The position numbers and the translations under genes are program-made. The notes beneath the pieces were generated by a model. It was given only the letters and a program-made list of their open reading frames with translations, had not been told where the DNA came from and ran no database searches. Below, in pieces: positions 258 to 57,187 of a stretch of 60,175 nt of DNA (within the stretch, counting starts at the first letter, position 1; the number at the start of each line of letters is the position of its first letter). Source of the DNA: a virus; IMG/VR virus record IMGVR_UViG_3300045988_134226; one strand, written 5' to 3'.

Positions 258-1946
258 TTACTCCAATCTTAACACTTGATTATTAACAACAGGGGCAAGA
301 TAATAATTTGATTTTGCCATAACATTATTGTAGGCTTCTTCGCCCTGAAAACTGTCTATAACTTCCTTTTCCTCCGCTGTCATATCTTGATATGCCTTTT
401 TGCCGTATGCAGGAGGTAACCAACCCTTACGCTGTCCTGCGTAAATGTTAAAGCGGTCTATTAATTCGGGACAAGTGAATGTAATATGTACCGTGCCTTT
501 TTTATAAAAATTGACTTTGAAAAATTTACATTTGATGTTTTTAGTTTCTCCGCACTTAAAGTGACAGTCGATAATATCCCAACTATCAACTTCCCTTGTC
601 ATACCGCCGTCAAGAAAATTCAGTATTCTTTCAATATCTTCAAGTGTTTTTCTTGCACTGTATGAGTCAACTCTATCGCTGTAATCACTAAACACACCAT
701 AACAAGGTATAATTACTTTCTTATCAATCTTGTAAGCACTATTTGTTTTCCAACCGTTATAATAATGCCTATTCTTTGAAAATTCAGGATAATATGAGTG
801 TTTTTCGGTCAATCGGTCATACATTGCAACTATTTCGTCCTCTATTCCTTGCTTTATGCGTGAGTTCATTTCAGCCGACAATGTATATATGTTAAACTCG
901 GTAAAGTCGTAATCAGCGAGTTTATAAACTTGCTCCATATATTCCTGTTGTAGTTTACTTGTTAATTTTTGTGTAAACTTTCGATTTGATAACAACGCTT
1001 TCCAATATTTAAGACGAACATCTCTCAAATAATCGTTAATAGTTACGCAATCGTTACCATAACTTCTATCTTTTTGGTTTAAAAGTCGCAATATAGGTTT
1101 TTTGCTATAAATATCATCATCAAAACTATTCTGCATATATGGCATTAACGCTCTGTACTTACGGATAAGTTCAAGTCCTGACTTAACCTCAATATTAAAT
1201 AGATTTACCGCCGCTTTGATGTAATCGGTTACTTCAAGGTCTGTCACATTTTCGTAAACATCTTCTACTTGTTCAGCCTTTTTGAAGTGATTATAAATAT
1301 CGCTTTCCTCTTGCACTTGTTCAATAGCAACCTTAATCAATGCTACTTGTACGCCTGTTGGTCGTTCTGCTGATATAAAAGCATTATCTATATATTCAAT
1401 TTGAGCGTTGTATTTGTTGAGCAATTCCAACAATGATTTACGGCTTTCTGTATAGGGGTTTTTAAGCGTTTCTGCATTAAGTAGGCAAATTATATTACCG
1501 CCTTTTTCTTGCATTTTGAGGGCTTTCAAGAGGTGTTTATCACCGTTTGAAAATGGAGGGTTCATTATGATGAGGTCATAACGCTTGTAGGGGCTATATG
1601 TGAGAAAATCGTCGTGTATGATGTGTATTCCCTTGTTAAAGAAGTATTCTCTTTCAGCGTCATTATAGTCAAATTGACATTCTCTTTCATCAGAAAAATT
1701 GTACTTTAGAATTTGTCGTAAATTCGGGTCAATCTCAATACAATCAACATCAAAAGAAGTATTATACAAACTATGCTCTTTTTTTGCTATTTCTCTTAAT
1801 ATATCGCCTTTACCTGCTGACGGCTCTAATATTGTGTTTATGTAATTCCAATTAGCACCTGTCAACATTTTATCAACTATGTTTTTAGGTGTAGGGTAAA
1901 ACTCGCTTGTTTGCTCGTTTTCTACCATTTGCATTAAATTACTCAT
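258..1946 (-). CDS. N6-adenine DNA methyltransferase with a long C-terminal extension
   Basis: 562 aa. Motif I is ILEPSAGKGDIL and motif IV is DLIIMNPPFS (order I then IV). The roughly 330-aa C-terminal region has no catalytic motif I recognise. Confidence 0.85.
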   Translation of the reverse strand: MSNLMQMVENEQTSEFYPTPKNIVDKMLTGANWNYINTILEPSAGKGDILREIAKKEHSLYNTSFDVDCIEIDPNLRQILKYNFSDERECQFDYNDAEREYFFNKGIHIIHDDFLTYSPYKRYDLIIMNPPFSNGDKHLLKALKMQEKGGNIICLLNAETLKNPYTESRKSLLELLNKYNAQIEYIDNAFISAERPTGVQVALIKVAIEQVQEESDIYNHFKKAEQVEDVYENVTDLEVTDYIKAAVNLFNIEVKSGLELIRKYRALMPYMQNSFDDDIYSKKPILRLLNQKDRSYGNDCVTINDYLRDVRLKYWKALLSNRKFTQKLTSKLQQEYMEQVYKLADYDFTEFNIYTLSAEMNSRIKQGIEDEIVAMYDRLTEKHSYYPEFSKNRHYYNGWKTNSAYKIDKKVIIPCYGVFSDYSDRVDSYSARKTLEDIERILNFLDGGMTREVDSWDIIDCHFKCGETKNIKCKFFKVNFYKKGTVHITFTCPELIDRFNIYAGQRKGWLPPAYGKKAYQDMTAEEKEVIDSFQGEEAYNNVMAKSNYYLAPVVNNQVLRLE

Positions 1947-1952
1947 TGTTAC

Positions 1953-2165
1953 TTACCTTTCTATTTCTTTATAAACAAAACTCTTTCCGTTGCCGTAAAC
2001 AACAAACCGTCCTTTACCCTCATAATCTCTCACTATATTTTGGGGGTTTTTCATAAGTTCAAGGGCGTATTGCCGTACTGCTTCAAGTGGTGATTTAGCA
2101 TAGATATATGTATCATCTGCCATAAGTCCTTTGTTAAGGTCAACTATACGATATTTAGTATTCAA
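1953..2165 (-). CDS. hypothetical protein
   Basis: 70 aa with a TTG start preceded by AAAGGTAAG. Tightly packed in the operon. Confidence 0.55.
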   Translation of the reverse strand: MNTKYRIVDLNKGLMADDTYIYAKSPLEAVRQYALELMKNPQNIVRDYEGKGRFVVYGNGKSFVYKEIER

Positions 2166-2171
2166 TGTTGC

Positions 2172-2378
2172 TTACCTTTCTTCGATTACGGTTTGAGTTA
2201 AGCACTCAATCAATTCGTATTTCTTATCAAGTAGAGTTTCTACTTTCTTCATTAAAGCCCTTACTCTCGATTTGTTAAAATCCTTGTCTATCCAAGTCAA
2301 TTTAACAATTTCATTGTTAGGACCTGTAATATGAGCATTTACTTCACTTAACTTTTGTTCAACCGTTTCGTATTCCAT
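2172..2378 (-). CDS. hypothetical protein
   Basis: 68 aa. The start follows two-hairpin element copy 1 and SD GAGAGGAA. Confidence 0.6.
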   Translation of the reverse strand: MEYETVEQKLSEVNAHITGPNNEIVKLTWIDKDFNKSRVRALMKKVETLLDKKYELIECLTQTVIEER

Positions 2379-2391
2379 AATTTCAATTCCT

Positions 2392-2450
2392 CTCTGCGTT
2401 TTAAGACCGCCGTCTTATTATGGAATAGGGCTGATACGCTCAACCCTTTA
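2392..2450 (-). promoter_or_regulatory. Conserved two-hairpin RNA element, copy 1
   Basis: Minus-strand RNA has AGGGUUGA-GCGUA-UCAGCCCU, then a linker, then AAGAC-GGCG-GUCUU, then AAAACGCAGAGAGG (SD). Nearly identical to 7858..7917. Covaries with 51876..51940. Confidence 0.7.
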
Positions 2451-3011
2451 CCATTCAAAACATTCTTTCATTCTTACAAATTCTGCTGAACGATTTTTCT
2501 TAAATTCTCTTACTATTGATGAAACGCTACGGTGTTCGTTAATTATTACTTCAACATTGGAGGCATTTGTCCAATGCACATTTCCGTTTTCGTCCTTAAA
2601 GCCAATTCTTGTGACTTCGTTCCACCAACGCTTGTATCGGTCAAAATTTGCATTTCCAATCCAAAAACATTCGCCTGTTGTACCTTTAGGGACTTTTCTA
2701 CCTTTAACAACTACAACCTTTTTACCCTTTCCAACTGTTTTTTCATTTCTGCGAACAGTTCCGATAAACTCCTGCAACATTCTGTTGTAACCGTTTCTTA
2801 AATAACTGCGATAATTTTCTTCCGTAATATCAACCTCGGCACTCCCACAACCACCACAACGAGTTGTGTCGTATTCGATAGTATCAATCTTGCCTGTTTC
2901 AGGGTTAAAACAATCTGCATAAAAATCGCTATCATTATAGCCATTTCTTTCCCAAATGTTAAAAACACAACCTGCATAAGTAACATTTCCGTTATTGTCT
3001 TTAATAGCCAT
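2448..3011 (-). CDS. hypothetical protein (first gene behind operator promoter A)
   Basis: 187 aa with SD GAAAGGAAA. Contains a Cys cluster (RCGGCGS). No family recognised. Confidence 0.65.
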   Translation of the reverse strand: MAIKDNNGNVTYAGCVFNIWERNGYNDSDFYADCFNPETGKIDTIEYDTTRCGGCGSAEVDITEENYRSYLRNGYNRMLQEFIGTVRRNEKTVGKGKKVVVVKGRKVPKGTTGECFWIGNANFDRYKRWWNEVTRIGFKDENGNVHWTNASNVEVIINEHRSVSSIVREFKKNRSAEFVRMKECFEW

Positions 3012-3063
3012 AGTAATTTCCTTTCATGGTTTAAGGATTGTCCGCTTCCTTATTACATTTGTA

Positions 3064-3092
3064 ATTGTACTACTTTTGTAGTATAAAATCAA
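3064..3092 (-). promoter_or_regulatory. Early promoter A with an embedded palindromic operator
   Basis: On the minus strand: TTGATT, 17 nt, TACAAT. The spacer holds the palindrome TACTAC-AAAA-GTAGTA (3068..3083; extended 3065..3086). Confidence 0.65.
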
Positions 3093-3156
3093 GGAAATTA
3101 ACATATTTTGTAAGGTTGCACAAATTACGCACGATTGTTTTATATAATTTGTATAA

Positions 3157-3669
3157 TTACTCCCAAGCGGCGGAAAACTCTTTATCTTTGAACAATGCTT
3201 GTAAACCGCTTAACTGTTTAAGCCTTAAAAGTTCCTCTGCGTCCATACCGATATTTTTTAATATCCAAGCGTCCGACATACCGCTTTCAACAAGTTCGGC
3301 AACAATGTTTGTCATTAGTTCGATTGAGTGGCTTCCTCTCGCTCTGTTGTGCCTTATTGTGCTTGCCATTCGGTTAGATATGTCCTTGTCAATCGTTACA
3401 ACAGGCAAACAACCATTTTCACGCTCGTAAATGTCTTTATGCGTCAGCATTACGGTGTATCTATGGTAGCCGTCCACAATCTCGTATTTGTCAATGTCAG
3501 CAAGATAATAGCAGACAATCGGCATAGTATAGCCGTCCTCTTTAATTGATTGATAGAGTAATTTCATTTCAGGCGGTGCAACGCTGTTAGGGTTATAGGC
3601 GTTTGCCTGTATCTTTTCAATCGGTATTGCTTTGACATCATAAACAGGTGATTTATACATAGTGTTCAC
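3157..3669 (-). CDS. ParB/Srx-fold protein, IbrB-like partner of the PP-loop enzyme
   Basis: 170 aa with ..ANAYNPNSV.., VDGYHRY (DGxHR-type motif) and RHNRARGSH. Starts 4 nt after the stop of the upstream PP-loop gene. Confidence 0.75.
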   Translation of the reverse strand: MNTMYKSPVYDVKAIPIEKIQANAYNPNSVAPPEMKLLYQSIKEDGYTMPIVCYYLADIDKYEIVDGYHRYTVMLTHKDIYERENGCLPVVTIDKDISNRMASTIRHNRARGSHSIELMTNIVAELVESGMSDAWILKNIGMDAEELLRLKQLSGLQALFKDKEFSAAWE

Positions 3670-3672
3670 TCC

Positions 3673-4962
3673 TTATAATTTCTTGTATTTTTCTATTGCC
3701 GACTTTCTCTTTTTGATTTCGTTCTTTGTTTGAGCAAAGCCCATATATTTACAGTAATAATCATTTTTGATGATACAAACGCACATTCTTTTGTAGGTCG
3801 GTACTTCCTTGAATTTTGTGCAGGTTGTATCGTCTAAATAATCATTAAATGCAATAACTCTTTTGGGTGATATTTTGCTTGTATTTCCCTTGTCTATAAA
3901 GTCTGCGTTTTCTTCTTCAAGTTCGGCTATTGTTTCATCATCAAGGCAACCGCCTTTTTCTTTCCAAAACTTGATTGAAGTATTTAGTTTTTCGAGGTAA
4001 TGTGCTTTTGTTTTTTCGTCAAGGGTATCAAGTAGAAAGTAACAATATTCTTTCCAAGTGAAATGTGCAGGCTTTTTGATAGACTTCCAACCCATAGCTG
4101 TTGTATCGCCGTACAGCCCTAAAAAGTTTACACCGTTTACCCTGCCTATCATTTTGCCCCAATTATTCGGGTCAATCACCTTGTAATACTTTAGTGTTGC
4201 TCCTGCACAATCGTTAAAGGGGCTTGCTACTCGCATTTGTTCAATGCTCATTCCTGCTTGATAATACAAATCATACAATCGGTTGTATGGCTTTTCGTAT
4301 TTTGCGTTGTATATCCATATATCTTGTGTTTCCCAATCGTAAATAGGGAAGCCGTGATAAACGCCACAAATCTGTTCAAGCACATACTTTTTACCTTTGT
4401 ATTTGCGTATATCCGTTTTGGCTCTCATATAGCGTGTGTAACTCTCGCTTGCCCTTATTCCTGTTATTACAATAGTACTTTTATTTCCGTTTATTTTCTT
4501 GTACCACACGCAAAAATTATCTTGCACCTCGTAATCAGGCTTGTTATATTCAAACTCGCAATTATCTTGATTTATAACAAAATCGTATTCAGGCATATTC
4601 CGCACCCAAATATCTTTTTTTGATTGCTCCCACGGTGTCCAATATGCACCTTGCATATTACAACAGCATTGTGCTTTAATCGGCAGGCACAACCAATACC
4701 GCTTAATGTCGCTAAACTGCTTGAATGTTTCCTCTACATAGTCGGTAGTCATTTGATATTGTGCTTCATAGTCGAGGTGATACATTGCCAACTTATCAAG
4801 CATATTATGCTCTTTGGCATAGTCATAGCAGAGGTTTAGGCAAACGCCACTATCCTTGCCGCCGCTGAACGCTACAAGAATATTATCAAATTCATCAAAA
4901 ATGTATTTTAGCCGCTCCTGTGTGGCTTCATAAACATTTTGACTTAAATACTTTTTACCCAC
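3673..4962 (-). CDS. PAPS-reductase-family PP-loop ATP pyrophosphatase (IbrA/DndC-like)
   Basis: 429 aa. N-terminal PP-loop VAFSGGKDSGV, plus a roughly 200-aa C-terminal domain. The GTG start (SD AAGGAG) overlaps the SNF2 stop by 19 nt. Confidence 0.8.
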   Translation of the reverse strand: MGKKYLSQNVYEATQERLKYIFDEFDNILVAFSGGKDSGVCLNLCYDYAKEHNMLDKLAMYHLDYEAQYQMTTDYVEETFKQFSDIKRYWLCLPIKAQCCCNMQGAYWTPWEQSKKDIWVRNMPEYDFVINQDNCEFEYNKPDYEVQDNFCVWYKKINGNKSTIVITGIRASESYTRYMRAKTDIRKYKGKKYVLEQICGVYHGFPIYDWETQDIWIYNAKYEKPYNRLYDLYYQAGMSIEQMRVASPFNDCAGATLKYYKVIDPNNWGKMIGRVNGVNFLGLYGDTTAMGWKSIKKPAHFTWKEYCYFLLDTLDEKTKAHYLEKLNTSIKFWKEKGGCLDDETIAELEEENADFIDKGNTSKISPKRVIAFNDYLDDTTCTKFKEVPTYKRMCVCIIKNDYYCKYMGFAQTKNEIKKRKSAIEKYKKL

Positions 4963-6182
4963 TCTTTAACTCCTTTCTTTGCTATTTCCTTTTTTACTTC
5001 ATCAAGCAAATTTGACTTTTTATTCAGGCTTCCTTGTATCAGCCGTTCAAGCCCTACATTGCACCATAGATTATAATAATCAACATCATATTCTTGCCCC
5101 ATTCTGTATATCCTTGCTTCCGCCTGTTCTCGCTGTGCGTAATCAAAGGAGTGTTCGGCAAATATGATATTTTTGCAGAATTGTAGGTTAAGACCGTATG
5201 CACCGCAACCATAAGTAATATATAGCACCTTTTCGTTGTCCTTAAAGCGTTGTATCGCTTCCGCTCTTTGCTCTGTGTTCATTTCACCTACAACCTTTAA
5301 CGCTCCGTCAGGTATGCTATTTAGATATTTCACAAACACAATTACTTTGCCGTCAATATCATCAATAAGCCGATTGAGTTTCAAGCATTTTTCGGTTGCA
5401 TTGCAATAATGAGATTGCAACAGTTGTGTTAATGCGAAAAAATCAATGTTATTCATATCGTCAAAGCACTTGTTTAAATAGTCGGTTTTAATAAATTCGT
5501 ATTCGTTAAGTTCTGCCGCACTCATTGAATAGGCTATATCGTGATACGCTTTCCTTGCTTCAATATCAAGTTCACAATCGAAAATATACGGTTGTATGAG
5601 GGATATTAGATGTTCAATGTTGTATTGCTCTTTTACCATTCCTTTTAACTTTCCACGAATGTAATACTCGCAATAGGTGTCTTTGAAATGGTTGTAACTC
5701 ATATTGAGGATTTTAGGGGATAAAAACTGCATTTGCGTCCAAAGGTCAAGAACATTCTTTGATAGTGGCGTGCCGTTCAAAATCAATTTGTAGGTTGCCA
5801 ACTCGCCGATTTTCAATATTCTTTTGGTGCGGTTGGCTTCTTTGTTTTTGATTTTCAGGCTTTCGTCTACTACCACAAAGCACCGCTTACCTTGCATTTT
5901 TTCAAGCGTTTCTAAATAAATGCGGTCACTCATTCCGATACTCTCGCAACCTACAACATCAAGTCGTAAATCAGCGTGCCATTTCTGCCGCTCCGCTTCA
6001 ATCTCGCCTTTCAGGGAACAAGGGCAAATCCAAAGGACATAATCAACCTTGTGTATCTTGCTTTGAATAAGGTCAAGAGCAACCTTTGTCTTGCCTGTTC
6101 CCATTTCCATAAATAACGCACCAACTTTAAGCCGTGACAGTTTGTCAAATGCTAATTGCTGTTTATTCGTCTTTGAGTTCAT
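4944..6182 (-). CDS. Compact SNF2-family ATPase/helicase
   Basis: 412 aa. Motif I MGTGKTKVA, II VVVDESLKIKN, III LNGTPLSKN, VI QAEARIYRMGQ. Confidence 0.85.
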   Translation of the reverse strand: MNSKTNKQQLAFDKLSRLKVGALFMEMGTGKTKVALDLIQSKIHKVDYVLWICPCSLKGEIEAERQKWHADLRLDVVGCESIGMSDRIYLETLEKMQGKRCFVVVDESLKIKNKEANRTKRILKIGELATYKLILNGTPLSKNVLDLWTQMQFLSPKILNMSYNHFKDTYCEYYIRGKLKGMVKEQYNIEHLISLIQPYIFDCELDIEARKAYHDIAYSMSAAELNEYEFIKTDYLNKCFDDMNNIDFFALTQLLQSHYCNATEKCLKLNRLIDDIDGKVIVFVKYLNSIPDGALKVVGEMNTEQRAEAIQRFKDNEKVLYITYGCGAYGLNLQFCKNIIFAEHSFDYAQREQAEARIYRMGQEYDVDYYNLWCNVGLERLIQGSLNKKSNLLDEVKKEIAKKGVKEWVKSI

Positions 6183-6606
6183 CAGGTACTTTCACCTCTT
6201 GCGGTTGTAACATTTTATTTTTAGGTGTTTGTGTTTGACGCATATAATTTTTATACGCCTTGTCTTGTTCAAACAGTTCTTTCGGCTGTTCGTTGCTTTG
6301 AAAATCAGTATCAAACATTTCTTTCAATATATCGTGAACATTTTTAACACCCTCAATACTAAAATTGTAATCAGCATAAATTTGCCTGCCATTTACAAAT
6401 ATAACCTTTCGTGGTTTTCTTCCATTATGATTGCAAGGATAGTTATAACCAACCTTTCCGTTATCGTATTCCACATTGCAACGCCACCATACATTCAACT
6501 TGTCTTTATTATTTTTTAAATCCTCTGCATATGTTTCCGAGGTTGTAGCAAGGACTAAATCGCCCCTATTATCTGTGATTGTGATTTTAACTGCGTTGTT
6601 ATTCAT
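6163..6606 (-). CDS. hypothetical protein
   Basis: 147 aa. The start overlaps the upstream stop (ATGAATAA) and the 3' end overlaps the SNF2 start. Confidence 0.65.
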   Translation of the reverse strand: MNNNAVKITITDNRGDLVLATTSETYAEDLKNNKDKLNVWWRCNVEYDNGKVGYNYPCNHNGRKPRKVIFVNGRQIYADYNFSIEGVKNVHDILKEMFDTDFQSNEQPKELFEQDKAYKNYMRQTQTPKNKMLQPQEVKVPDELKDE

Positions 6607-6997
6607 TGTCTTGCAACTCCTTTATTGAATTATGCTCAACCGCTTCAATCGTCTGCGGCTTGTGTGTTTCGTAAGGGTTTTTAAATTCCTTTTCGGTTAT
6701 GTTTTCATTGACAACTCCGAAAGCGTTTTCAAATTCCTCAACATCAATAACTTTTTCGTCTATGACTTCACGGCTGTTATATCTGCCTTTTCCGTACTTT
6801 TTCAATGTAAATGTAAAGTCGTCAGTATAGCCGAGTGATACCGACGCCGAATGTCTGCCGTTTCTTATCAACTTTGATGTATGCCAAAAGGCGTAACCGT
6901 CATAATCAGAATTGTGTGGCATAGCGATTAAAACCGCCTTGCCTGTGTCTGCTTTAATTTGATTTGTGTTGATATTGATATTCTTCCAATTTGCCAT
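6599..6997 (-). CDS. hypothetical protein
   Basis: The track ORF is 6599..7015. ATG at 6997 (MANWKN..) has SD AAAAGGA and begins 1 nt after the upstream stop. Confidence 0.6.
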   Translation of the reverse strand: MANWKNININTNQIKADTGKAVLIAMPHNSDYDGYAFWHTSKLIRNGRHSASVSLGYTDDFTFTLKKYGKGRYNSREVIDEKVIDVEEFENAFGVVNENITEKEFKNPYETHKPQTIEAVEHNSIKELQDNE

Positions 6998-6998
6998 T

Positions 6999-7202
6999 TT
7001 ACTTGTCCTTTTCATACGCTGTTGCTAATGCAATGAATACGGCTGTATTTTCAACTTTTTTCATTCGGTCATATGTTTTCTTTGCTTTTTGTAAAACTCG
7101 CTTATTTCGGCGCTTGCAAGCACTGTCTGCAATAAGTGTTATGAACATCACAAGTGCAAGCGTTCCGAAAAACACTAAACCGAAAACTTGATACTCTGTC
7201 AT
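6999..7202 (-). CDS. small membrane protein
   Basis: 67 aa with an N-terminal hydrophobic helix (VFGLVFFGTLALVMFITLI) followed by a basic tail. Confidence 0.55.
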   Translation of the reverse strand: MTEYQVFGLVFFGTLALVMFITLIADSACKRRNKRVLQKAKKTYDRMKKVENTAVFIALATAYEKDK

Positions 7203-8358: not shown

Positions 8359-8427
8359 GATATTGAAAGAGGATAGCAATGTATTATTTGCTATAATCTA
8401 ATTAACATCACATAAAGGGTGGTTAAT

Positions 8428-8682
8428 ATGGTACTAAATCAAAAACAACTTATTGAGTATGCTATCAAGGGTGTAAATGCCGACATTGGTAAAATTGAGC
8501 GGTCTATCAGGAGGGGCGAAAACTTATTACTTGCTATTGAAAAAGGTATTGCACAAACTAACAAAACACCATTAGAGGTTAAACAATCTATTCAAAAGAA
8601 AAAAGCAGAGGTTGAGCATTTAACATTTACGGTTATGAAATTAAAATGGGAATTGTCCGAGTTAGAGGAAAAAGAGCAATAA
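8428..8682 (+). CDS. hypothetical coiled-coil protein (lone plus-strand gene)
   Basis: The track ORF starts at 8419. ATG at 8428 has SD AAGGGTGG. Flanked by operator promoter C' and a bidirectional terminator. Confidence 0.65.
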   Translation: MVLNQKQLIEYAIKGVNADIGKIERSIRRGENLLLAIEKGIAQTNKTPLEVKQSIQKKKAEVEHLTFTVMKLKWELSELEEKEQ

Positions 8683-8683
8683 A

Positions 8684-8719
8684 AAAAGAGGGGCTATCAA
8701 TTAAGATAGCCCCTTTGTT
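8684..8719. terminator. Bidirectional intrinsic terminator between convergent genes
   Basis: Stem AGGGGCTATC / GATAGCCCCT (8689-8698 / 8705-8714). An A7 run lies upstream and TTTGTT downstream. Confidence 0.8.
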
Positions 8720-8723
8720 ATGA

Positions 8724-9527
8724 TTATACTCTTTTTGTGAATGCAAGGTTGATATAGCCGATACCTGATTTTAATTTACCCCAGCCGTCCTTTTCTGCAA
8801 CGATTGTGTAAACTTCATTGCGGTGTACGGTGGTTTTTAGCTTGTACTTCATTCCTGCGCCTGCTCTTACATTAAGTGTAGTTGCATTGATTTTGACCTT
8901 ATAAGGAAACTTTGACTTTGTTTCTGTCTTTGTGGCAGTTTCCTTTTTCTGCTCTTTCAAGCCCCTAACACTTGCGATTGCCTTTGCGATTGCTTCACCG
9001 CATTTCTTTTGTCCTGCGGAAGTTTTGACTTTTACAAGGTCGCTGTCAGTATCAATAAACACCGTTTCAACAAGAACGGCACACGGCTTTGTACTGCGAA
9101 TAATTCCAAAATAGTCATTGCCATTTGAGCCGAGTTTTGTTTTTGCCCCTCTATTCTTAACATCAAAGGTGCTTGCAATGTTCTTAGTAATTGTTTCGGC
9201 GTATTTCTTGCCCCTTTCACTTTGGTGGTGGTAGTAACATTCTGTACCTGTTCCGCCACCTGCGTTAAGGTGAATTTCAGCGATAAAGTCGTATGTATCG
9301 TCTTTAAGCTTATTAATACGCTCTTGCAAGGATAAACCGCCGTCATAGTTCATCAAGTCGCAATGTTCGGCGTAATGCTCGTTATAATACTTTTGAGCAT
9401 ACTTGCCGATTTCCTTTGCTATTTTAAACTCGTGATACTTTTTATCCTTTGATACTGCACCGCTGTCGTAACTCTTGCCGTCGTCTGCTGTACCGTGTCC
9501 GATTGTAATAATAATCTTTTTAGCCAT
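8724..9527 (-). CDS. Endolysin: N-acetylmuramoyl-L-alanine amidase (Amidase_3-type) with a C-terminal SH3-like domain
   Basis: ITIGHGTADDG.., AEIHLNAGGGTGTE and VLVETVFIDTD motifs. C-terminal LNVRAGAG..GWGKL is SH3-like. ATG at 9527 has SD GGAGGA. Confidence 0.85.
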   Translation of the reverse strand: MAKKIIITIGHGTADDGKSYDSGAVSKDKKYHEFKIAKEIGKYAQKYYNEHYAEHCDLMNYDGGLSLQERINKLKDDTYDFIAEIHLNAGGGTGTECYYHHQSERGKKYAETITKNIASTFDVKNRGAKTKLGSNGNDYFGIIRSTKPCAVLVETVFIDTDSDLVKVKTSAGQKKCGEAIAKAIASVRGLKEQKKETATKTETKSKFPYKVKINATTLNVRAGAGMKYKLKTTVHRNEVYTIVAEKDGWGKLKSGIGYINLAFTKRV

Positions 9528-9801
9528 TTGCTTTGTCCTCCGTATCATCATTTACTTTCGGTGCTTGATAATTTAAGGCGTTTTTGCTGTCGCCTATTCC
9601 GTCTGTTGTTGGGTCAACTACAACACCAAGAACAACAAGAATATTAACTAACAAGCCGATAGTATTTATAATCTCGTCCTGTGATACAGTAGGCACAACG
9701 CCGAACAAGCCCAAAAGCTGATACACAAAAGTAACGCAAAGAGCAATTAAAGTTACAAGAGTTGTTTTATTCTGTAATCTCAATTTCCAATTAATTTTCA
9801 T
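9520..9801 (-). CDS. Holin (phi LC3 / holin_4_1-like)
   Basis: MKINWKLRLQNKTTLVTLI.. is followed by two hydrophobic helices and VDPTTDGIGDS. ATG at 9801 has SD GAGGTG. Confidence 0.75.
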   Translation of the reverse strand: MKINWKLRLQNKTTLVTLIALCVTFVYQLLGLFGVVPTVSQDEIINTIGLLVNILVVLGVVVDPTTDGIGDSKNALNYQAPKVNDDTEDKANG

Positions 9802-9811
9802 TTTTAGCACC

Positions 9812-10462
9812 TCACTTTAAATATTCGCTTGCTACATATCCTGTATAAGACTTGTATTTTACTTTCGCCCAACCGTGACCGTTTTTGCTTCCGCAATTCT
9901 TATTGATAACATCAACGGTTGCGCCGTTTGGGATAGTGGTAACTACTCCTGCGGTTGTACCGATTTTTGAGCGCATAGTTAAACCACCGTTAGCGTCAAC
10001 GGTGGCTTTTGTTGTAGTTACCTTTTTAGTTGTCTTAATTTTTCTTTGGTCTTTGGGTCTTAACACACCGTAAACGGCTCTATAAGAGTGCTTAACCTTT
10101 TTCATTTCCTTACTGCCCCAATTTTGGTCGTAAGTATAGAAATAAGATGTGTTGCCCTCGCCTGTTGCAATAGCGATATGTCCGCAATCGTTTTTACTGC
10201 TTATATCGCCGTTCCAAACAACAATATCACCCTTTTTCGGTACAAAATCGGGTGTGTTCTTGATTTTGGTAAATTTGCTTTTCAATGCTGAATGGCTGTT
10301 AAAACTCAACCAATAATCTTTTGCGTTGCCCCAAGCGCCTGCCTTAATTCCAAAAACGGAATAAAGATATTGCTTTGCTAAATCGACGCATTGAACGCCG
10401 CTTACCTTGTCATAGTCCGTTTTCTTACCTAAAAACTTTTTTACAAATTCGTTATAATTCAT
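9812..10462 (-). CDS. Second endolysin: CHAP-domain peptidase/amidase with a C-terminal SH3-like domain
   Basis: GVQCVDLAKQY (Cys) and CGHIAIATG (His) mark the CHAP domain. The C-terminal GWAKVKYKSYTGYV is SH3-like. Confidence 0.8.
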   Translation of the reverse strand: MNYNEFVKKFLGKKTDYDKVSGVQCVDLAKQYLYSVFGIKAGAWGNAKDYWLSFNSHSALKSKFTKIKNTPDFVPKKGDIVVWNGDISSKNDCGHIAIATGEGNTSYFYTYDQNWGSKEMKKVKHSYRAVYGVLRPKDQRKIKTTKKVTTTKATVDANGGLTMRSKIGTTAGVVTTIPNGATVDVINKNCGSKNGHGWAKVKYKSYTGYVASEYLK

Positions 10463-52914: not shown

Positions 52915-52954
52915 GGTGCTATCGCTAAATATTTAATAAGAGGTGGAAAAAATA

Positions 52955-53275
52955 GTGTGTACTATCGGCACGAAACTGAAAACATTGAGGAAAGGCAGAA
53001 AACTAACGCAACAAGAATTATCCGAAAGAATGGGCTTAAGCCGTGCCACTATAAGTAATTATGAGGTCGGGCGTCGTTCGCCACATTTATCCGATTTACG
53101 CCGCTTTGCTGAATTTTACGGCGTTAGTCTTGATTACTTCGGCGTTACTACAACAGACGAAAGTTTTGAGTTGTTAAGCCGTGCAAAAAGCATTTTCCTT
53201 AATGAAACTATCCCAAAAGAAGAAAGGGAACATTTATACAAGGAAATAATGAAAATGTATTTGAATATGAAATAA
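52955..53275 (+). CDS. XRE-family HTH repressor (CI-like candidate)
   Basis: GTG at 52955 lies 8 nt after AAGAGGTGG. The track start at 52943 lies inside the SD. Contains LTQQELSERMGLSRATISNYEVGRR. Confidence 0.75.
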   Translation: MCTIGTKLKTLRKGRKLTQQELSERMGLSRATISNYEVGRRSPHLSDLRRFAEFYGVSLDYFGVTTTDESFELLSRAKSIFLNETIPKEEREHLYKEIMKMYLNMK

Positions 53276-53280
53276 ATTCA

Positions 53281-53309
53281 AAGAATACAATTTATTGTAT
53301 TCTTTTTTT
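53281..53309 (+). terminator. Intrinsic terminator after the CI-like gene
   Basis: AAGAATACAAT/ATTGTATTCTT stem followed by a T7 run. Confidence 0.7.
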
Positions 53310-53434
53310 ATTGACAAAATTATAATAACATAGGGAATTTATCGTTACAACAACTTTTTAGATACTTTGAGCATAAAATTTTTACTTTTAAGATACAATA
53401 ATGCTATGCTATTCTACAAAGGAGGTGATTAGTA

Positions 53435-53809
53435 TTGTCCTTAACAGTAGGTGAAAAAATCAAAAAGTACAGGCTTGAAAAGGGAATGACGCAAGAGGAG
53501 TTAGGAAAGGAGTTAGGCGTTGGGAGGGCAGCTGTGCAGAAATACGAAAGCAATCAGGTACAAAACTTAAAGTCCGCACATATCAAAAAATTATGCCACC
53601 TATTCGACAAAGTTCCGTGGGATTTTATCTTTGACGGTCATACTAAATATGCTGAATACAATGTAACGCAAGTTACAGCATTAAGAAAAGCATTTGGTGA
53701 AGAAGTGGAAAATATACTACTTCCGTTAGCAAAGTTGAATGATAAAGGGTTAGCAAAAGTTCGTAATTACATTTCCGATATGCTGAAAATAGAAGAATAT
53801 CGCAATTAG
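53435..53809 (+). CDS. Second XRE-family HTH regulator
   Basis: 124 aa. TTG start with SD AAGGAGGTG. Contains MTQEELGKELGVGRAAVQKYESNQ. Confidence 0.75.
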   Translation: MSLTVGEKIKKYRLEKGMTQEELGKELGVGRAAVQKYESNQVQNLKSAHIKKLCHLFDKVPWDFIFDGHTKYAEYNVTQVTALRKAFGEEVENILLPLAKLNDKGLAKVRNYISDMLKIEEYRN

Positions 53810-53821
53810 GAGGAATATTAC

Positions 53822-55399
53822 TTGAAGTCGAAAAACAAGCCATTCATACGGAAAGCCGTTGCTTACGCTCGGTTTTCATCAAACAATCAGCGTGAGGAAA
53901 GTATAGACGCACAATTAAGGGCTATAAGCGACTATTGTGAGCGTGAGAATATTCAATTAGTAGATATATATTCAGATGAAGCACAATCCGCTAAAACCGA
54001 CAACAGGGACGATTTTAAGAATATGACAGACGCAATATTCAAAGGCAATTATGATATTGACGCTGTATTAGTCCATAAGTTTAACCGTTTTGCTCGTAAC
54101 AAGTATGATAGTGCGTTGTATAAGAAGCGTTTAAGAGATATAGGCATAAAGGTTGTGTCCGTTACTCAACCGATAGACGATAGCCCCGAGGGGCGTATTC
54201 TCGAAAGCCTTATTGAAGCAATGGACGAATACTATTCGGAAAACCTTGCTTTAGAGGTCAAAAAGGGAATGTTAGAAAACGCCTTGAAAGGTAAACATAC
54301 AGGTGGTGGCAAACTGCTCGGACTGTCCGTTGATGATGAGGGTTATTATTATCCTGACGAAAACGCACCGATTATTTATCGAATATTTAAGGAATATGCG
54401 GACGGCGTACCAAAGACGCAAATTGTTGAACGCTTAAACCGTGAGGGCTACCGCAACCAATACGGCAGGAAGTTCAACACTCGCACCATTACCGATTTAT
54501 TGCAAAATGAAAAGTATATAGGTAATTTCATTTATAATCATACTCAATCGCAAGTTATCCGTTTAGAGGGTATAATCAAAAATCCAATAGTTGATGAGGA
54601 TTTATGGGAACGAGTGCAAAAATTGCGGAAAGACGCAAACAAGCCAAAACACCGAAAAAGAAAATATCTAATGACAGGTAAATTGCGTTGCGGTGTTTGC
54701 GGATTTACTTATTGCGGAAGCGGTGCAAAAAAGAAAAACAAGAACGGAGATATGTCCGCTTATTATAAATGTCAAGGCAAAATTAAAAACAAGAACGGCT
54801 GTACTAACCCGTCCTTGAACAAAGATTATTACGAAAAACTTGTTATTGATACTATAACAAAAAGCGTCCTGACAGACAACGCCATTGATGAAATAGCGGT
54901 TAGTGTGACAACTCAACTTGAAAGAGAAAGAAAAAAGCCACTAATACCAACGGCAAAATTAAGAAATCAACTCGACAAAGTGAAAGATAAACAAGCAAGG
55001 CTAATGGAGTTATACCTTGACGGTGGTATGGAAAGAAAGGTACTTGATGAAAAGAACAACGCATTAAAAGAAGAAAGAAAACACATTGAAGAACAAATAG
55101 AAAGAAATTTATATTTAGAGCAATCAAACATTCTTGATGTTCAAGATATAAAAAATATGATATTAGAGTTTCGTGAGGAATTAAAAAATAACCCTGACTT
55201 TGATTTTGCACAAGTAGTATTTAATACTTTTGTTGACAGTATCGTTGTTTACCCCGATACCCTTGAAGTTAATTTAAGGGTGGACTTTTCCACCCTCGGG
55301 GGTGATAAGAGGAAAAACAGGGGGGCAAGCCACCCAATAAACCCCCTTTTGATAAACAAATCTGTCAAACGGAAAACGCACCAACAACCAACAAATTAA
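53822..55399 (+). CDS. int: Large serine recombinase (integrase)
   Basis: 525 aa. Resolvase catalytic domain AVAYARFSSNNQ, a recombinase domain, a zinc ribbon CGVCG...YYKCQG and a C-terminal coiled coil. Confidence 0.9.
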   Translation: MKSKNKPFIRKAVAYARFSSNNQREESIDAQLRAISDYCERENIQLVDIYSDEAQSAKTDNRDDFKNMTDAIFKGNYDIDAVLVHKFNRFARNKYDSALYKKRLRDIGIKVVSVTQPIDDSPEGRILESLIEAMDEYYSENLALEVKKGMLENALKGKHTGGGKLLGLSVDDEGYYYPDENAPIIYRIFKEYADGVPKTQIVERLNREGYRNQYGRKFNTRTITDLLQNEKYIGNFIYNHTQSQVIRLEGIIKNPIVDEDLWERVQKLRKDANKPKHRKRKYLMTGKLRCGVCGFTYCGSGAKKKNKNGDMSAYYKCQGKIKNKNGCTNPSLNKDYYEKLVIDTITKSVLTDNAIDEIAVSVTTQLERERKKPLIPTAKLRNQLDKVKDKQARLMELYLDGGMERKVLDEKNNALKEERKHIEEQIERNLYLEQSNILDVQDIKNMILEFREELKNNPDFDFAQVVFNTFVDSIVVYPDTLEVNLRVDFSTLGGDKRKNRGASHPINPLLINKSVKRKTHQQPTN

Positions 55400-55701: not shown

Positions 55702-55730
55702 AAGAGGGGCGTTATTGCCCCTCTTTTTTT
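55702..55730 (+). terminator. Intrinsic terminator ending the lysogeny operon
   Basis: AAGAGGGGC-GTTATT-GCCCCTCTT followed by a T run. Confidence 0.8.
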
Positions 55731-56602: not shown

Positions 56603-56777
56603 CTAAATACCCTCCATAATTATCTTGTACCCAAGCAAAAAACGGACTTACTTTTCGCATAGCCTTATGAAGTTCCATACGCTTTATCCTTTGTTGCTCT
56701 TTTTTGCCTATTCTTTGTTCAGGTGGTATGTATTTTTTTCTGTGTGTTCCTGCTTTCATTTTTCTACCACCAACCAT
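56589..56777 (-). CDS. Small basic protein
   Basis: 62 aa, Lys/Arg rich. Confidence 0.5.
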   Translation of the reverse strand: MVGGRKMKAGTHRKKYIPPEQRIGKKEQQRIKRMELHKAMRKVSPFFAWVQDNYGGYLDDEV

Positions 56778-57187
56778 TCCAACAATTCGGGGTTATCGTG
56801 TATATTGTCAATAATTTCACAATTTGTTTTTATAGCAAATGCCTTTTTCTTTCCTCTCTTATAATAATTCTCTTTTTCGGTATAAGTGTGGGAAATAACA
56901 AATTGTGATGATTTAGAAAAGCGAACAACGCCTATTATTTCCAAATTGTCGTATGAATTTATTTGTTTAATAATGTCGCCCTCAAAAATCTTTTTACCAT
57001 TTTTATCGGTCAAGCCTGTGAATTGTCCGACTGTTTTAGGGTCAACAAAAACTCTGCACCTGTTACCAAATCTATCAAGATAGATTATTGACGGATATTC
57101 TTTTCCAGTTGTATCTAAACTGCCAAAAAGCCAACAATGATTTGTAAGAGCCGAAAATTCCTTTCCTCTAAAAAGTATCTCTCTCAT
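56756..57187 (-). CDS. YopX-family protein
   Basis: 143 aa with MREILFRGK.. and TVGQFTGLTDKNGKKIFEGDII. Confidence 0.75.
   Translation of the reverse strand: MREILFRGKEFSALTNHCWLFGSLDTTGKEYPSIIYLDRFGNRCRVFVDPKTVGQFTGLTDKNGKKIFEGDIIKQINSYDNLEIIGVVRFSKSSQFVISHTYTEKENYYKRGKKKAFAIKTNCEIIDNIHDNPELLEWLVVEK

Follow-up and report, generated by a model that had tools for sequence, protein, structure and literature searches.

A conserved phage module of SNF2, IbrA and IbrB genes and its possible role in marking DNA

We have analyzed a 60,175-nucleotide stretch of viral DNA (IMG/VR record IMGVR_UViG_3300045988_134226; "the window" below means this whole stretch), in which a SNF2-family ATPase, a PP-loop enzyme of the IbrA type and its ParB-like partner IbrB, probably together with a small protein called u138, constitute a conserved module whose four genes all lie within 3.9 kb. 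IbrB accompanies IbrA almost without exception in the loci that we compared, the SNF2 proteins linked to the pair group apart from other SNF2 proteins, and IbrB is subject to strong purifying selection. An earlier note made from the sequence of the window had presented this region as its best candidate for an undescribed system. The word "undescribed" was an overstatement, because the IbrA/IbrB family already bears a name (Pfam DUF3440, PHROGs 2302 and 2159, E. coli YbdN/YbdM): the window contains a further member of a known, biochemically unsolved family, not a new category. Our preferred reading, to which we give somewhat less than an even chance, is that the module is a DNA-directed machine that would use an adenylated intermediate to install a post-replicative covalent mark on DNA.

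The chain of overlapping minus-strand genes that the earlier note had placed between positions 7202 and 3157 was recovered with every open reading frame (ORF) at those positions and with the same tight packing, and the domains named there (SNF2, PP-loop and ParB), as well as the transmembrane (TM) protein, were confirmed by profile searches and hydropathy. In order, the chain comprises a single-pass TM peptide of 67 residues (6999-7202), u138 (6599-7015), an orphan ORF called u147 that is placed between u138 and the SNF2 gene (6163-6606), the SNF2 protein of 412 residues (4944-6182), IbrA (3673-4962) and IbrB (3157-3669), all on the minus strand. Neighboring genes overlap by 17 nt (TM peptide and u138), 8 nt (u138 and u147), 20 nt (u147 and SNF2) and 19 nt (SNF2 and IbrA), and IbrA is separated from IbrB by 3 nt, or by 12 nt if IbrB begins at the ATG at 3660, which has AAGGAG upstream and is probably the true start. 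A Shine-Dalgarno sequence (AGGA or GGAG) is found ahead of most starts in the chain.

That IbrA and IbrB are a true pair of this family, as the earlier note proposed, is borne out by Pfam and PHROG profiles alike. IbrA contains both domains of the COG3969-type family above their curated cut-offs, PAPS_reduct (PF01507; E = 2e-16, 61 bits against a cut-off of 22.5) and DUF3440 (PF11922; E = 2e-82, 276 bits against 25, over the whole profile); it matches phrog_2302 at 9e-102, and its ParB-fold partner is encoded directly downstream on the same strand. The sequence SGGKDS at residues 33-38 is the canonical PP-loop of ATP pyrophosphatases. This motif, Cys92 and Cys394, the last of which belongs to a K..C..I.KND motif in the tail, are kept in a set of 124 sequences whose identities go down to 45%, as is the core of the phosphoadenosine phosphosulfate (PAPS) reductase fold, GxRxxES..R and NxxYD. 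Cys99 and Cys101, from the Cys99-101 run, are kept only among close relatives; a three-cysteine Fe-S site, or a TtuA-like [4Fe-4S] cluster, was considered and dropped, because only Cys92 and Cys394 hold across the 124 sequences. In an AlphaFold2 model of IbrA (predicted local distance difference test score, pLDDT, 81) it is the N-terminal domain alone that matches adenosine phosphosulfate (APS) and PAPS reductases, CysD and FAD synthetase (E ~1e-7). A search of PDB sequences with IbrA and IbrB returned no solved relative, the matches to plant APS reductase and Noc being marginal.

These data bear directly on the label "phosphoadenosine phosphosulfate reductase" that the protein carries in PHROGs, under the category of morons and auxiliary metabolic genes, and in phage records. 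Taken literally, as in a gut-phage paper (PMC12323421), it would make IbrA a CysH-type PAPS reductase with which the phage boosts the sulfur assimilation of its host. We regard this as very improbable. The CysH, PAPS-reductase and APS-reductase models give 16-28 bits against cut-offs of 154-254 (TIGR00434, 27.9 against 165; TIGR02057, 20 against 254; TIGR02055, 16 against 235), the catalytic cysteine of the C-terminal ECG[LI]H motif of CysH was not found in IbrA, and the PP-loop is of the ATP-pyrophosphatase type. Moreover, IbrA has an obligate ParB partner and the additional DUF3440, and there are no other sulfur-assimilation genes nearby. The placement of IbrA outside the metabolic CysH clade, on which the proposal of the earlier note depended, is thus upheld by the TIGR00434 score and the missing ECGLH motif. 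The DndC equivalog model TIGR03183 gives 28.1 bits against a cut-off of 290.4 and, judged by these profile scores, IbrA is neither CysH nor DndC.

IbrB is identified as a member of its family (ParB/sulfiredoxin (Srx) fold) by ParB_N (PF02195; E = 5e-7, 30.2 bits against 26.3), by phrog_2159 (1.5e-80) and by a GxxR-type box II, seen as DGYHRY at residues 66-71. The conserved motifs of the protein are SPVY, NPN.V..PEM, DG.HR and RHNRARG.H; DGYHR (box II-like) and RHNRARG (box III-like, of the N..R type) are conserved in 121 sequences, and in our own reading DG.HR and RHNRARG.H may represent the phosphate-binding boxes of ParB-fold nucleoside triphosphatases (NTPases). In every one of 114 loci IbrB exceeds IbrA in conservation, with median identities of 74-78% versus 51-56%, and identity reaches 94% across unrelated phages. 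Since saturation is seen at synonymous sites (relative codon entropy 0.94), and no stretch of low entropy stands out, this conservation reflects strong purifying selection on the protein, not recent transfer or a DNA site embedded in the gene; a parS-like element was rejected as its cause on the same grounds. Selection of this strength is unusual for an accessory phage protein of 170 residues. In three viral or genomic loci (L002, at 9303-10304, as well as L017 and L091) we observed that the reading frame of IbrB also includes a segment of ~165 residues similar to HNH homing endonucleases, which is either a genuine fusion or the result of a mobile endonuclease inserting between the IbrA and IbrB genes.

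Linkage was studied by mapping the proteins of the window onto 135 loci around IbrA relatives, 55 viral and 80 genomic; loci extending far enough for a given gene are referred to as testable. IbrB comes after IbrA, in the same orientation, in 49 of 49 viral and 65 of 66 genome loci (114/115 in total) from many phyla. A SNF2 gene is found directly upstream, usually overlapping IbrA, in 27/45 viral and 39/68 genome loci (~58%), which derive from Firmicutes, Bacteroidota, Verrucomicrobiota, Gamma- and Epsilonproteobacteria and others. Even a Clostridium scindens phage whose IbrA is only 26% identical to that of the window keeps the order helicase-IbrA-IbrB, and its helicase is 32% identical to the window's along the full length. 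The SNF2 protein itself consists of the two helicase lobes and no other domain (SNF2-rel_dom, PF00176, 6e-14, 52 bits; Helicase_C, PF00271, 1e-8, 36 bits; phrog_62, 1e-69), with motifs I (GTGKT), II (DESL), III (NGTP) and VI (QAEARIYRMGQ, fitting QxxxRxxRxGQ) all present, as in SNF2-family ATPases; we predict that it is a translocase on double-stranded DNA (dsDNA). In a reciprocal test with 80 viral SNF2 loci, the best 9 (E <= 4e-55) all contain IbrA and IbrB, while the remaining 71 (E >= 5e-42) contain neither. In a neighbor-joining tree of 142 SNF2 proteins a single branch parts the 79 that are linked to IbrA from the 63 that are not, with no exceptions. In this tree the IbrAB-linked SNF2 proteins are a dedicated clade of their own, with the reservation that outgroup sampling is narrow and monophyly needs a broader tree. 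The earlier note had made its case depend on finding the SNF2-IbrA-IbrB trio together in other genomes: the trio does co-occur across phyla, and with a dedicated type of SNF2.

A gene similar to u138 (phrog_27058, 1e-25) is located upstream of SNF2 in 36 of the 58 testable loci that contain SNF2, abutting or overlapping it in 27, and its counterpart in Bacteroidota, a protein of 107 residues, is remotely homologous to it by hhalign (81%, E = 1e-5). This small SNF2-associated protein is probably a fourth component of the module. The two other small genes of the chain behave differently. No match to u147 was found in Pfam, PHROGs, NCBIfam or PADLOC, nor a relative in any fetched locus; the closest relative of the window, locus L002, is without it, and u138 abuts SNF2 there, so that u147 is a lineage-specific insertion between u138 and SNF2. 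The TM peptide, the first gene of the chain, has a hydrophobic window of 19 residues (6-24; hydropathy 2.6), no family match in Pfam or PHROGs and no relative in the fetched loci.

The same arrangement of small ORFs, a helicase of ~400 residues, IbrA and IbrB can be recognized in isolate phages (Lactobacillus CR28, phiAQ113, Streptococcus thermophilus CHPC877, phages of Streptococcus equinus, and C. scindens phiCs5676-1). Their modules sit just after the lysis genes, as in the window; the helicase is annotated or left hypothetical in them, and is not discussed. Their IbrA is only 26-53% identical to that of the window, which adds to this arrangement the orphan u147, the TM peptide and two methyltransferases. 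The enterobacterial pairs, the IbrAB island of E. coli ECOR-9 and the paralogous YbdN/YbdM of K-12, likewise combine an IbrA containing PAPS_reduct and DUF3440 with a ParB_N partner directly downstream (31% identity for IbrA and 43% for IbrB between the pair of an E. coli plasmid and the window). They differ in standing alone, with neither SNF2 nor a u138-like gene, in having adhesin or siderophore genes as neighbors or a LysR repressor in control, and in an IbrB of ~214 residues with an N-terminal extension; the window represents the phage, SNF2-linked form. As an example, in E. coli plasmid p100 (locus L221, 4883-10823) the stand-alone pair comes right after a YadA-like (Eib-like) adhesin gene and an OmpA gene, an arrangement that is the classical IbrAB island, and in the Klebsiella virulence plasmid pKP35_vir (L220, 8962-10823) it lies between the fec and iro siderophore loci. 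A plasmid leading-region (anti-defense) context was considered for these pairs and rejected, as they are found in virulence or cargo regions of both plasmids inspected. In K-12, YbdN/YbdM, a pair of the same kind, is repressed by the LysR regulator YbdO/CitR (PMC9068703).

How might such a set of proteins work? From domain logic and gene neighborhood we infer the following sequence of events, with a u138-like protein, SNF2, IbrA and IbrB as the conserved unit. IbrB, as an NTP-binding protein of the ParB/Srx fold, would bind duplex DNA and recruit or activate IbrA. SNF2 motors and enzymes work on duplex DNA, and the one encoded here would move the complex along dsDNA or clear it of bound proteins, so that many sites could be reached quickly during infection; it would be dispensable in the slower cellular and plasmid versions. 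IbrA would split ATP into adenosine monophosphate (AMP) and pyrophosphate and adenylate an oxygen atom of DNA, either of a backbone phosphate or of a base carbonyl; adenylation of a substrate is to be expected because the pyrophosphatase motif of its PP-loop is intact. A nucleophile would then displace AMP: our first guess is sulfur, supplied by a host cysteine desulfurase and passed on via Cys92 and Cys394, for which a weak hint may be found in the coincidence of ybdNM derepression, upon deletion of ybdO/citR in E. coli, with induction of the cys regulon (PMC9068703). The resulting mark would shield the phage DNA from host nucleases or alter the binding of silencing or regulatory proteins, which could also explain the "gene activation" phenotype reported for the family.

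This DNA-marking machine is favored because several lines of evidence converge on it: the PP-loop, an SNF2 motor suited to duplex DNA, precedents for a ParB-like helper, neighboring DNA enzymes, and carriage by phages that do not lysogenize. With regard to precedents, a phage thymine dioxygenase needs a ParB-like activator, specifically on dsDNA (PMC13229309). In the Dpd system a ParB-like ATPase, DpdB, works with DpdA and is found together with the SNF2-like DpdE and DpdJ (PMC12839542), and in the Dnd system DndB, of the ParB superfamily, stands beside DndC, a PP-loop ATP pyrophosphatase similar to PAPS reductase that acts on DNA (PMC10853773). The neighboring genes include PD-(D/E)XK, Mrr_N and Mrr-like genes, methyltransferases (in the window and in L002) and, in phage phiFN37, a ParB-like gene with a tRNA-guanine transglycosylase-type 7-deazaguanine cassette. 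With regard to carriage, the module of CHPC877 lies between lysin and cro with no integrase, and phage FCL-2 is without integrase or repressor (PMC4541368); as phages without lysogeny genes carry the module, it serves the phage itself.

The differences from these precedents are equally clear. Relative to Dnd, the window has DUF3440 in place of the rest of DndC and SNF2 where Dnd has the SMC-like DndD; genes for DndA/IscS, DndD or DndE were found neither among the recurrent neighbors of the 135 loci nor among the Pfam-scanned proteins of the window. The enzyme in Dpd and in the thymine systems is a transglycosylase or a dioxygenase, whereas that of the window is a PP-loop adenylating enzyme; the window SNF2 matches the DpdE models only partially, and preQ0 pathway genes are not present in the window. 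A bolder version of our reading, that the trio installs a DNA modification not yet described, be it a base thiolation or amination via an adenylated intermediate or a phosphorothioation that dispenses with DndD and DndE, with the ParB-like protein as obligatory activator and SNF2 as the motor that spreads the mark, is possible, though we consider it doubtful.

Several observations weigh against a DNA-marking role. SNF2 is missing from ~40% of loci, and many pairs occur by themselves, either among the housekeeping genes of chromosomes or on virulence plasmids beside adhesin or siderophore genes. No recurrent co-substrate gene (cysteine desulfurase, sulfur carrier or amidotransferase) was found among 1,463 neighboring ORFs. 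The DndC models of PADLOC match IbrA only at residues 155-235, and IbrB, at E <= 0.001, matches neither DndB nor any other defense model of PADLOC. The DUF3440 half of IbrA, modeled alone (pLDDT 73), has a best PDB match at E = 2.7, with no fold found; a winged helix, which had been our guess for this half, was not confirmed by this search. A Rosetta-stone search gave no fusion of IbrA to ParB or SNF2 among the longer IbrA representatives (493-673 residues), which hold only PAPS_reduct and DUF3440, one of them with an ABC_tran fragment as well. In the literature searched we found no chemistry or biochemical study of IbrA/IbrB, YbdN/YbdM or DUF3440. Finally, the sole phenotype reported for the family is an activation of gene expression.

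This phenotype is the starting point of what we consider the main rival explanation, unlikely as it is in our estimate. The module would be a transcription-regulatory device, a "co-activator of prophage gene expression" that leaves no lasting mark on DNA: IbrB would bind, spread or slide on DNA, while IbrA and SNF2 help to displace silencers or to reshape nucleoprotein complexes; alternatively, the adenylation target of IbrA would be a protein. According to what Sandt and Hill are said to have found, the IbrAB island of E. coli activates eib genes, and this remains the only experimental phenotype of the family, with the label echoed in later papers (PMC4541368, PMC5874904, PMC8813620). A regulatory role is also consistent with the position of the E. 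coli plasmid pair right after an Eib-like adhesin gene, with the dedicated LysR repressor of ybdNM, with the location of the module, in the Firmicutes phages examined, at the boundary between lysis and cro or between lysis and integrase, by regulatory genes, and with a partial match of the window SNF2 to an NCBIfam SNF2 model named "pilus expression-regulating". On the other hand, a canonical ATP-pyrophosphatase PP-loop and two invariant cysteines are odd for a pure regulator, neither in IbrA nor in IbrB did we detect a helix-turn-helix (HTH) or any other domain for sequence-specific DNA binding, and the near-invariance of IbrB across phyla is unexpected for a factor that recognizes element-specific sites. 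Gene activation could, besides, be downstream of a DNA modification. No eib-like target genes were seen in the scanned parts of the window.

The neighboring nucleases and the helicase matches bear on another explanation, which we rate as improbable: a conflict system that destroys or excludes DNA. Its effector would be IbrB, acting like a ParB-type nickase or NTPase, while SNF2 would sense by translocating and IbrA would consume ATP in a regulatory capacity; such a system would serve host-DNA takeover, superinfection exclusion or, if encoded by a prophage, defense of the lysogen. Enzymes of the PAPS-reductase fold or SNF2 ATPases do occur in DNA conflict, as in BrxP of type 4 BREX, DrmD of DISARM and ZorD of Zorya, and nicking, DNase and NTPase activities of ParB/Srx domains are documented (PMC5512222). 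The window SNF2 gives partial matches to DrmD (54.8 bits against a cut-off of 950), ZorD (41.6 against 1500) and DpdE (15.2 against 500), PD-(D/E)XK and Mrr-type genes are neighbors in some loci, and in the window the module occupies a usual site of prophage defense, an accessory region between lysis and integration behind a terminator of its own. All matches to defense models are, however, partial and far under the cut-offs (15-55 bits against 500-1500 for the helicases of DISARM, Zorya, Dpd and BREX); a PADLOC scan of IbrA (E <= 0.001) gave only DndC models and not BrxP, and the other components of BREX, DISARM, Zorya and Dpd are not present in the region. Some nuclease ORFs look like mobile insertions, such as the HNH piece joined to IbrB in L002, virulent phages carry the module, and stand-alone pairs are stable in housekeeping chromosomal contexts with no evident immunity gene.

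A further alternative arises from the PP-loop itself. TilS, ThiI, MnmA and TtuA are PP-loop enzymes that modify tRNA bases, and sulfiredoxin is an example of a ParB/Srx-fold enzyme that does not act on DNA. IbrA could thus modify RNA, for instance a tRNA base, or else a nucleotide or small molecule, with IbrB as a nucleotide-handling partner akin to Srx or SerK. The Foldseek matches of IbrA do include TilS, TtuA, NcsA and LarE, IbrB has a weak match to SerK, and no DNA-binding fold was detected in DUF3440. We see only a slight chance for this explanation: the tRNA-enzyme matches (E ~1e-4) are weaker than those to the PAPS-reductase group (E ~1e-7), the neighbors are DNA enzymes, and a dedicated clade of SNF2 proteins is tightly, often translationally, coupled to IbrA.

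In general, it can be seen that pairs of the IbrA/IbrB type are widespread: clustering of their proteins at 90% identity gives ~6,000 groups. Phages of Firmicutes, Bacteroidota, Fusobacteria and Actinobacteria carry them, as reportedly does an Asgard-archaeal virus (PMC8813620). Among plasmids, 704 of 72,556 records (~1%), mostly from Klebsiella and Escherichia, contain an IbrAB relative. Their surroundings are varied. Bacteroidota-phage loci that are without SNF2 have two small ORFs upstream and often a PD-(D/E)XK nuclease after the pair or between its two genes, and Bacteroidales chromosomes have a conserved protein of ~131 residues upstream of the pair. In some 30 viral loci without SNF2, in addition to L033 (7382-8001), two conserved small ORFs precede IbrA: the first encodes ~140 residues with an IYHHYxxWED motif and no family match, and the second, of 89 residues, matches only the last 40 positions of DUF3440, like a free-standing IbrA tail. 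These two upstream ORFs were earlier noted for phage FCL-2 (PMC4541368). Some viral contigs (L009-L012; for example L009, 8001-12049) contain two IbrA/IbrB-type pairs in tandem, the second set in the order ParB-like protein, WED-motif protein, IbrA-like protein (~35% identity), and in L009 there is also a radical-SAM-like ORF upstream (5925-7067). In alphaproteobacterial metagenome-assembled genomes (MAGs) a Mrr_N-domain protein is encoded directly upstream of a stand-alone pair (L070, 7558-7977), and two Paraprevotella loci have a full Mrr-like gene ~450 nt upstream, with an ORF of 134 residues between (L112, 6619-7539); such Mrr-type neighbors may link the pair to modification-dependent restriction. 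In Fusobacterium phage phiFN37 (L139, 1-4612 and 9363-10940) a run of IbrA, IbrB, a hypothetical protein and a helicase is found beside a second ParB-like gene, a DpdA-like queuine tRNA-ribosyltransferase and a preQ transporter, and a DUF4942 methyltransferase lies beside the integrase: this is a multi-system DNA-modification region.

That methyltransferase resembles the first of the two encoded in the window beyond IbrB. MT1 (258-1946, minus strand) has a putative amino-methyltransferase domain of the N6-adenine (or N4-cytosine) type, with motif I EPSAGKG and motif IV NPPF at residues 129-132, followed by a C-terminal DUF4942 (3e-35, 122 bits); several "DNA methyltransferase" PHROGs match it, and the matches to Dam (24.1 against 28.1) and MTS (19.9 against 23) remain under the cut-offs. 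MT2, also on the minus strand, starts at an ATG at 248, 9 nt past the MT1 stop codon, and crosses the contig junction (5' part, 1-248; 3' part, 58812-60120). The ORF, rebuilt on the circularized sequence, is real, as the earlier note had supposed, and encodes 518 residues with NPPY at 187-190; both this motif and NPPF were read directly. MT2 matches N6_Mtase (PF02384; 1.6e-43, 149.7 bits against 20.4, profile positions 19-305 of 311), which together with NPPY points to an HsdM-like, gamma-class DNA adenine methyltransferase; it is an orphan, since no HsdS or HsdR gene (specificity or restriction subunit) was found nearby, and has a C-terminal extension of ~145 residues. The coupling of the two enzymes to the module suggested in the earlier note did not hold, as they are not conserved partners: among ~220 fetched loci, MT1 has relatives in only 2, L002 and phiFN37, and an MT2-like gene is found in 1. 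They are ordinary orphans, which we read as separate anti-restriction cargo that shares the accessory transcription unit with the module. Between IbrB and MT1 there are three small minus-strand ORFs, not part of the earlier description of the region, of 187 (2448-3011), 68 (2172-2378) and 70 (1953-2165) residues. The first has a CGGCG motif and weak PHROG matches, with a counterpart ahead of the module in L005 to which it is 43% identical along its full length; the other two have no relative in any fetched locus. Because the methyltransferases, u147, the TM peptide and these small ORFs scarcely recur, the island is to be seen as a conserved four-gene core with unrelated cargo.

The ends of the window are an exact 55-bp direct repeat, bases 1-55 being identical to 60121-60175 (no strand assigned). 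This recurrence, an assembly signature, shows that the window was assembled as a circle of 60,120 bp, across whose junction the genes at the two ends need to be read. The contig derives from a temperate tailed phage, since its products include an Amidase_3/SH3 lysin (8724-9551), a large serine recombinase (serine integrase; 53822-55399, plus strand) and two Cro/CI-type HTH proteins (52943-53809); the minus strand holds nearly all the other long ORFs. A gut Firmicute is the probable host, because the nearest genomic relatives of IbrA come from Clostridia and Peptococcaceae MAGs. No DNA-level relative was found by megablast among 50,697 isolate phage records or by blastn in E. coli genomes, and tRNA and Rfam scans of the window gave no match.

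A bidirectional intrinsic terminator at 8687-8716, with a 12-bp G+C-rich stem followed by a T-run on each strand, is placed right after the lysin, between it and a convergent plus-strand gene of 87 residues (8419-8682). It marks the end of the lysis operon and the upstream boundary of an accessory transcription unit; the module therefore belongs to a separate unit running toward the integration region. This unit begins upstream of 7202, as genes at 8182-7229 precede the chain. A second strong G+C-rich hairpin terminator (55702-55725) follows the serine integrase. Between the two lies a 12-kb accessory region in which the module is found together with the methyltransferases and a YopX gene (56756-57187). 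The "second promoter" that the earlier note had placed after IbrB could not be sustained: the minus-strand site at 3092-3064, in the 145-nt gap after IbrB, is TTGATT-17-TACAAT, a 9/12 match to consensus and weak evidence, and the number of sites in the promoter scan is lower than that in shuffled sequences, so that for the operon structure we rely solely on terminators and on how the genes are spaced.

These results can be interpreted with regard to the family as a whole. Current labels such as "PAPS reductase / ParB partition protein" or sulfur-metabolism auxiliary gene are contradicted by the profile scores. We found no earlier description, in the literature searched, of the SNF2 clade, the u138-like fourth gene or the extreme constraint on IbrB, and on account of these three features the trio is well suited as a starting point for experiments on a widespread family. 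The window is a compact and complete example of it, with SGGKDS, Cys92, Cys394, DGYHR and the Walker motifs of SNF2 as targets for mutation. If the trio does write a new mark, this would be a new chemistry among the DNA modifications of phages and bacteria, with another ParB-fold protein in the service of DNA-modifying enzymes. In that case the IbrAB/YbdNM pairs of cells and plasmids would qualify as orphan epigenetic writers, and the old regulatory phenotype would be explained, "gene activation" being a consequence of the mark.

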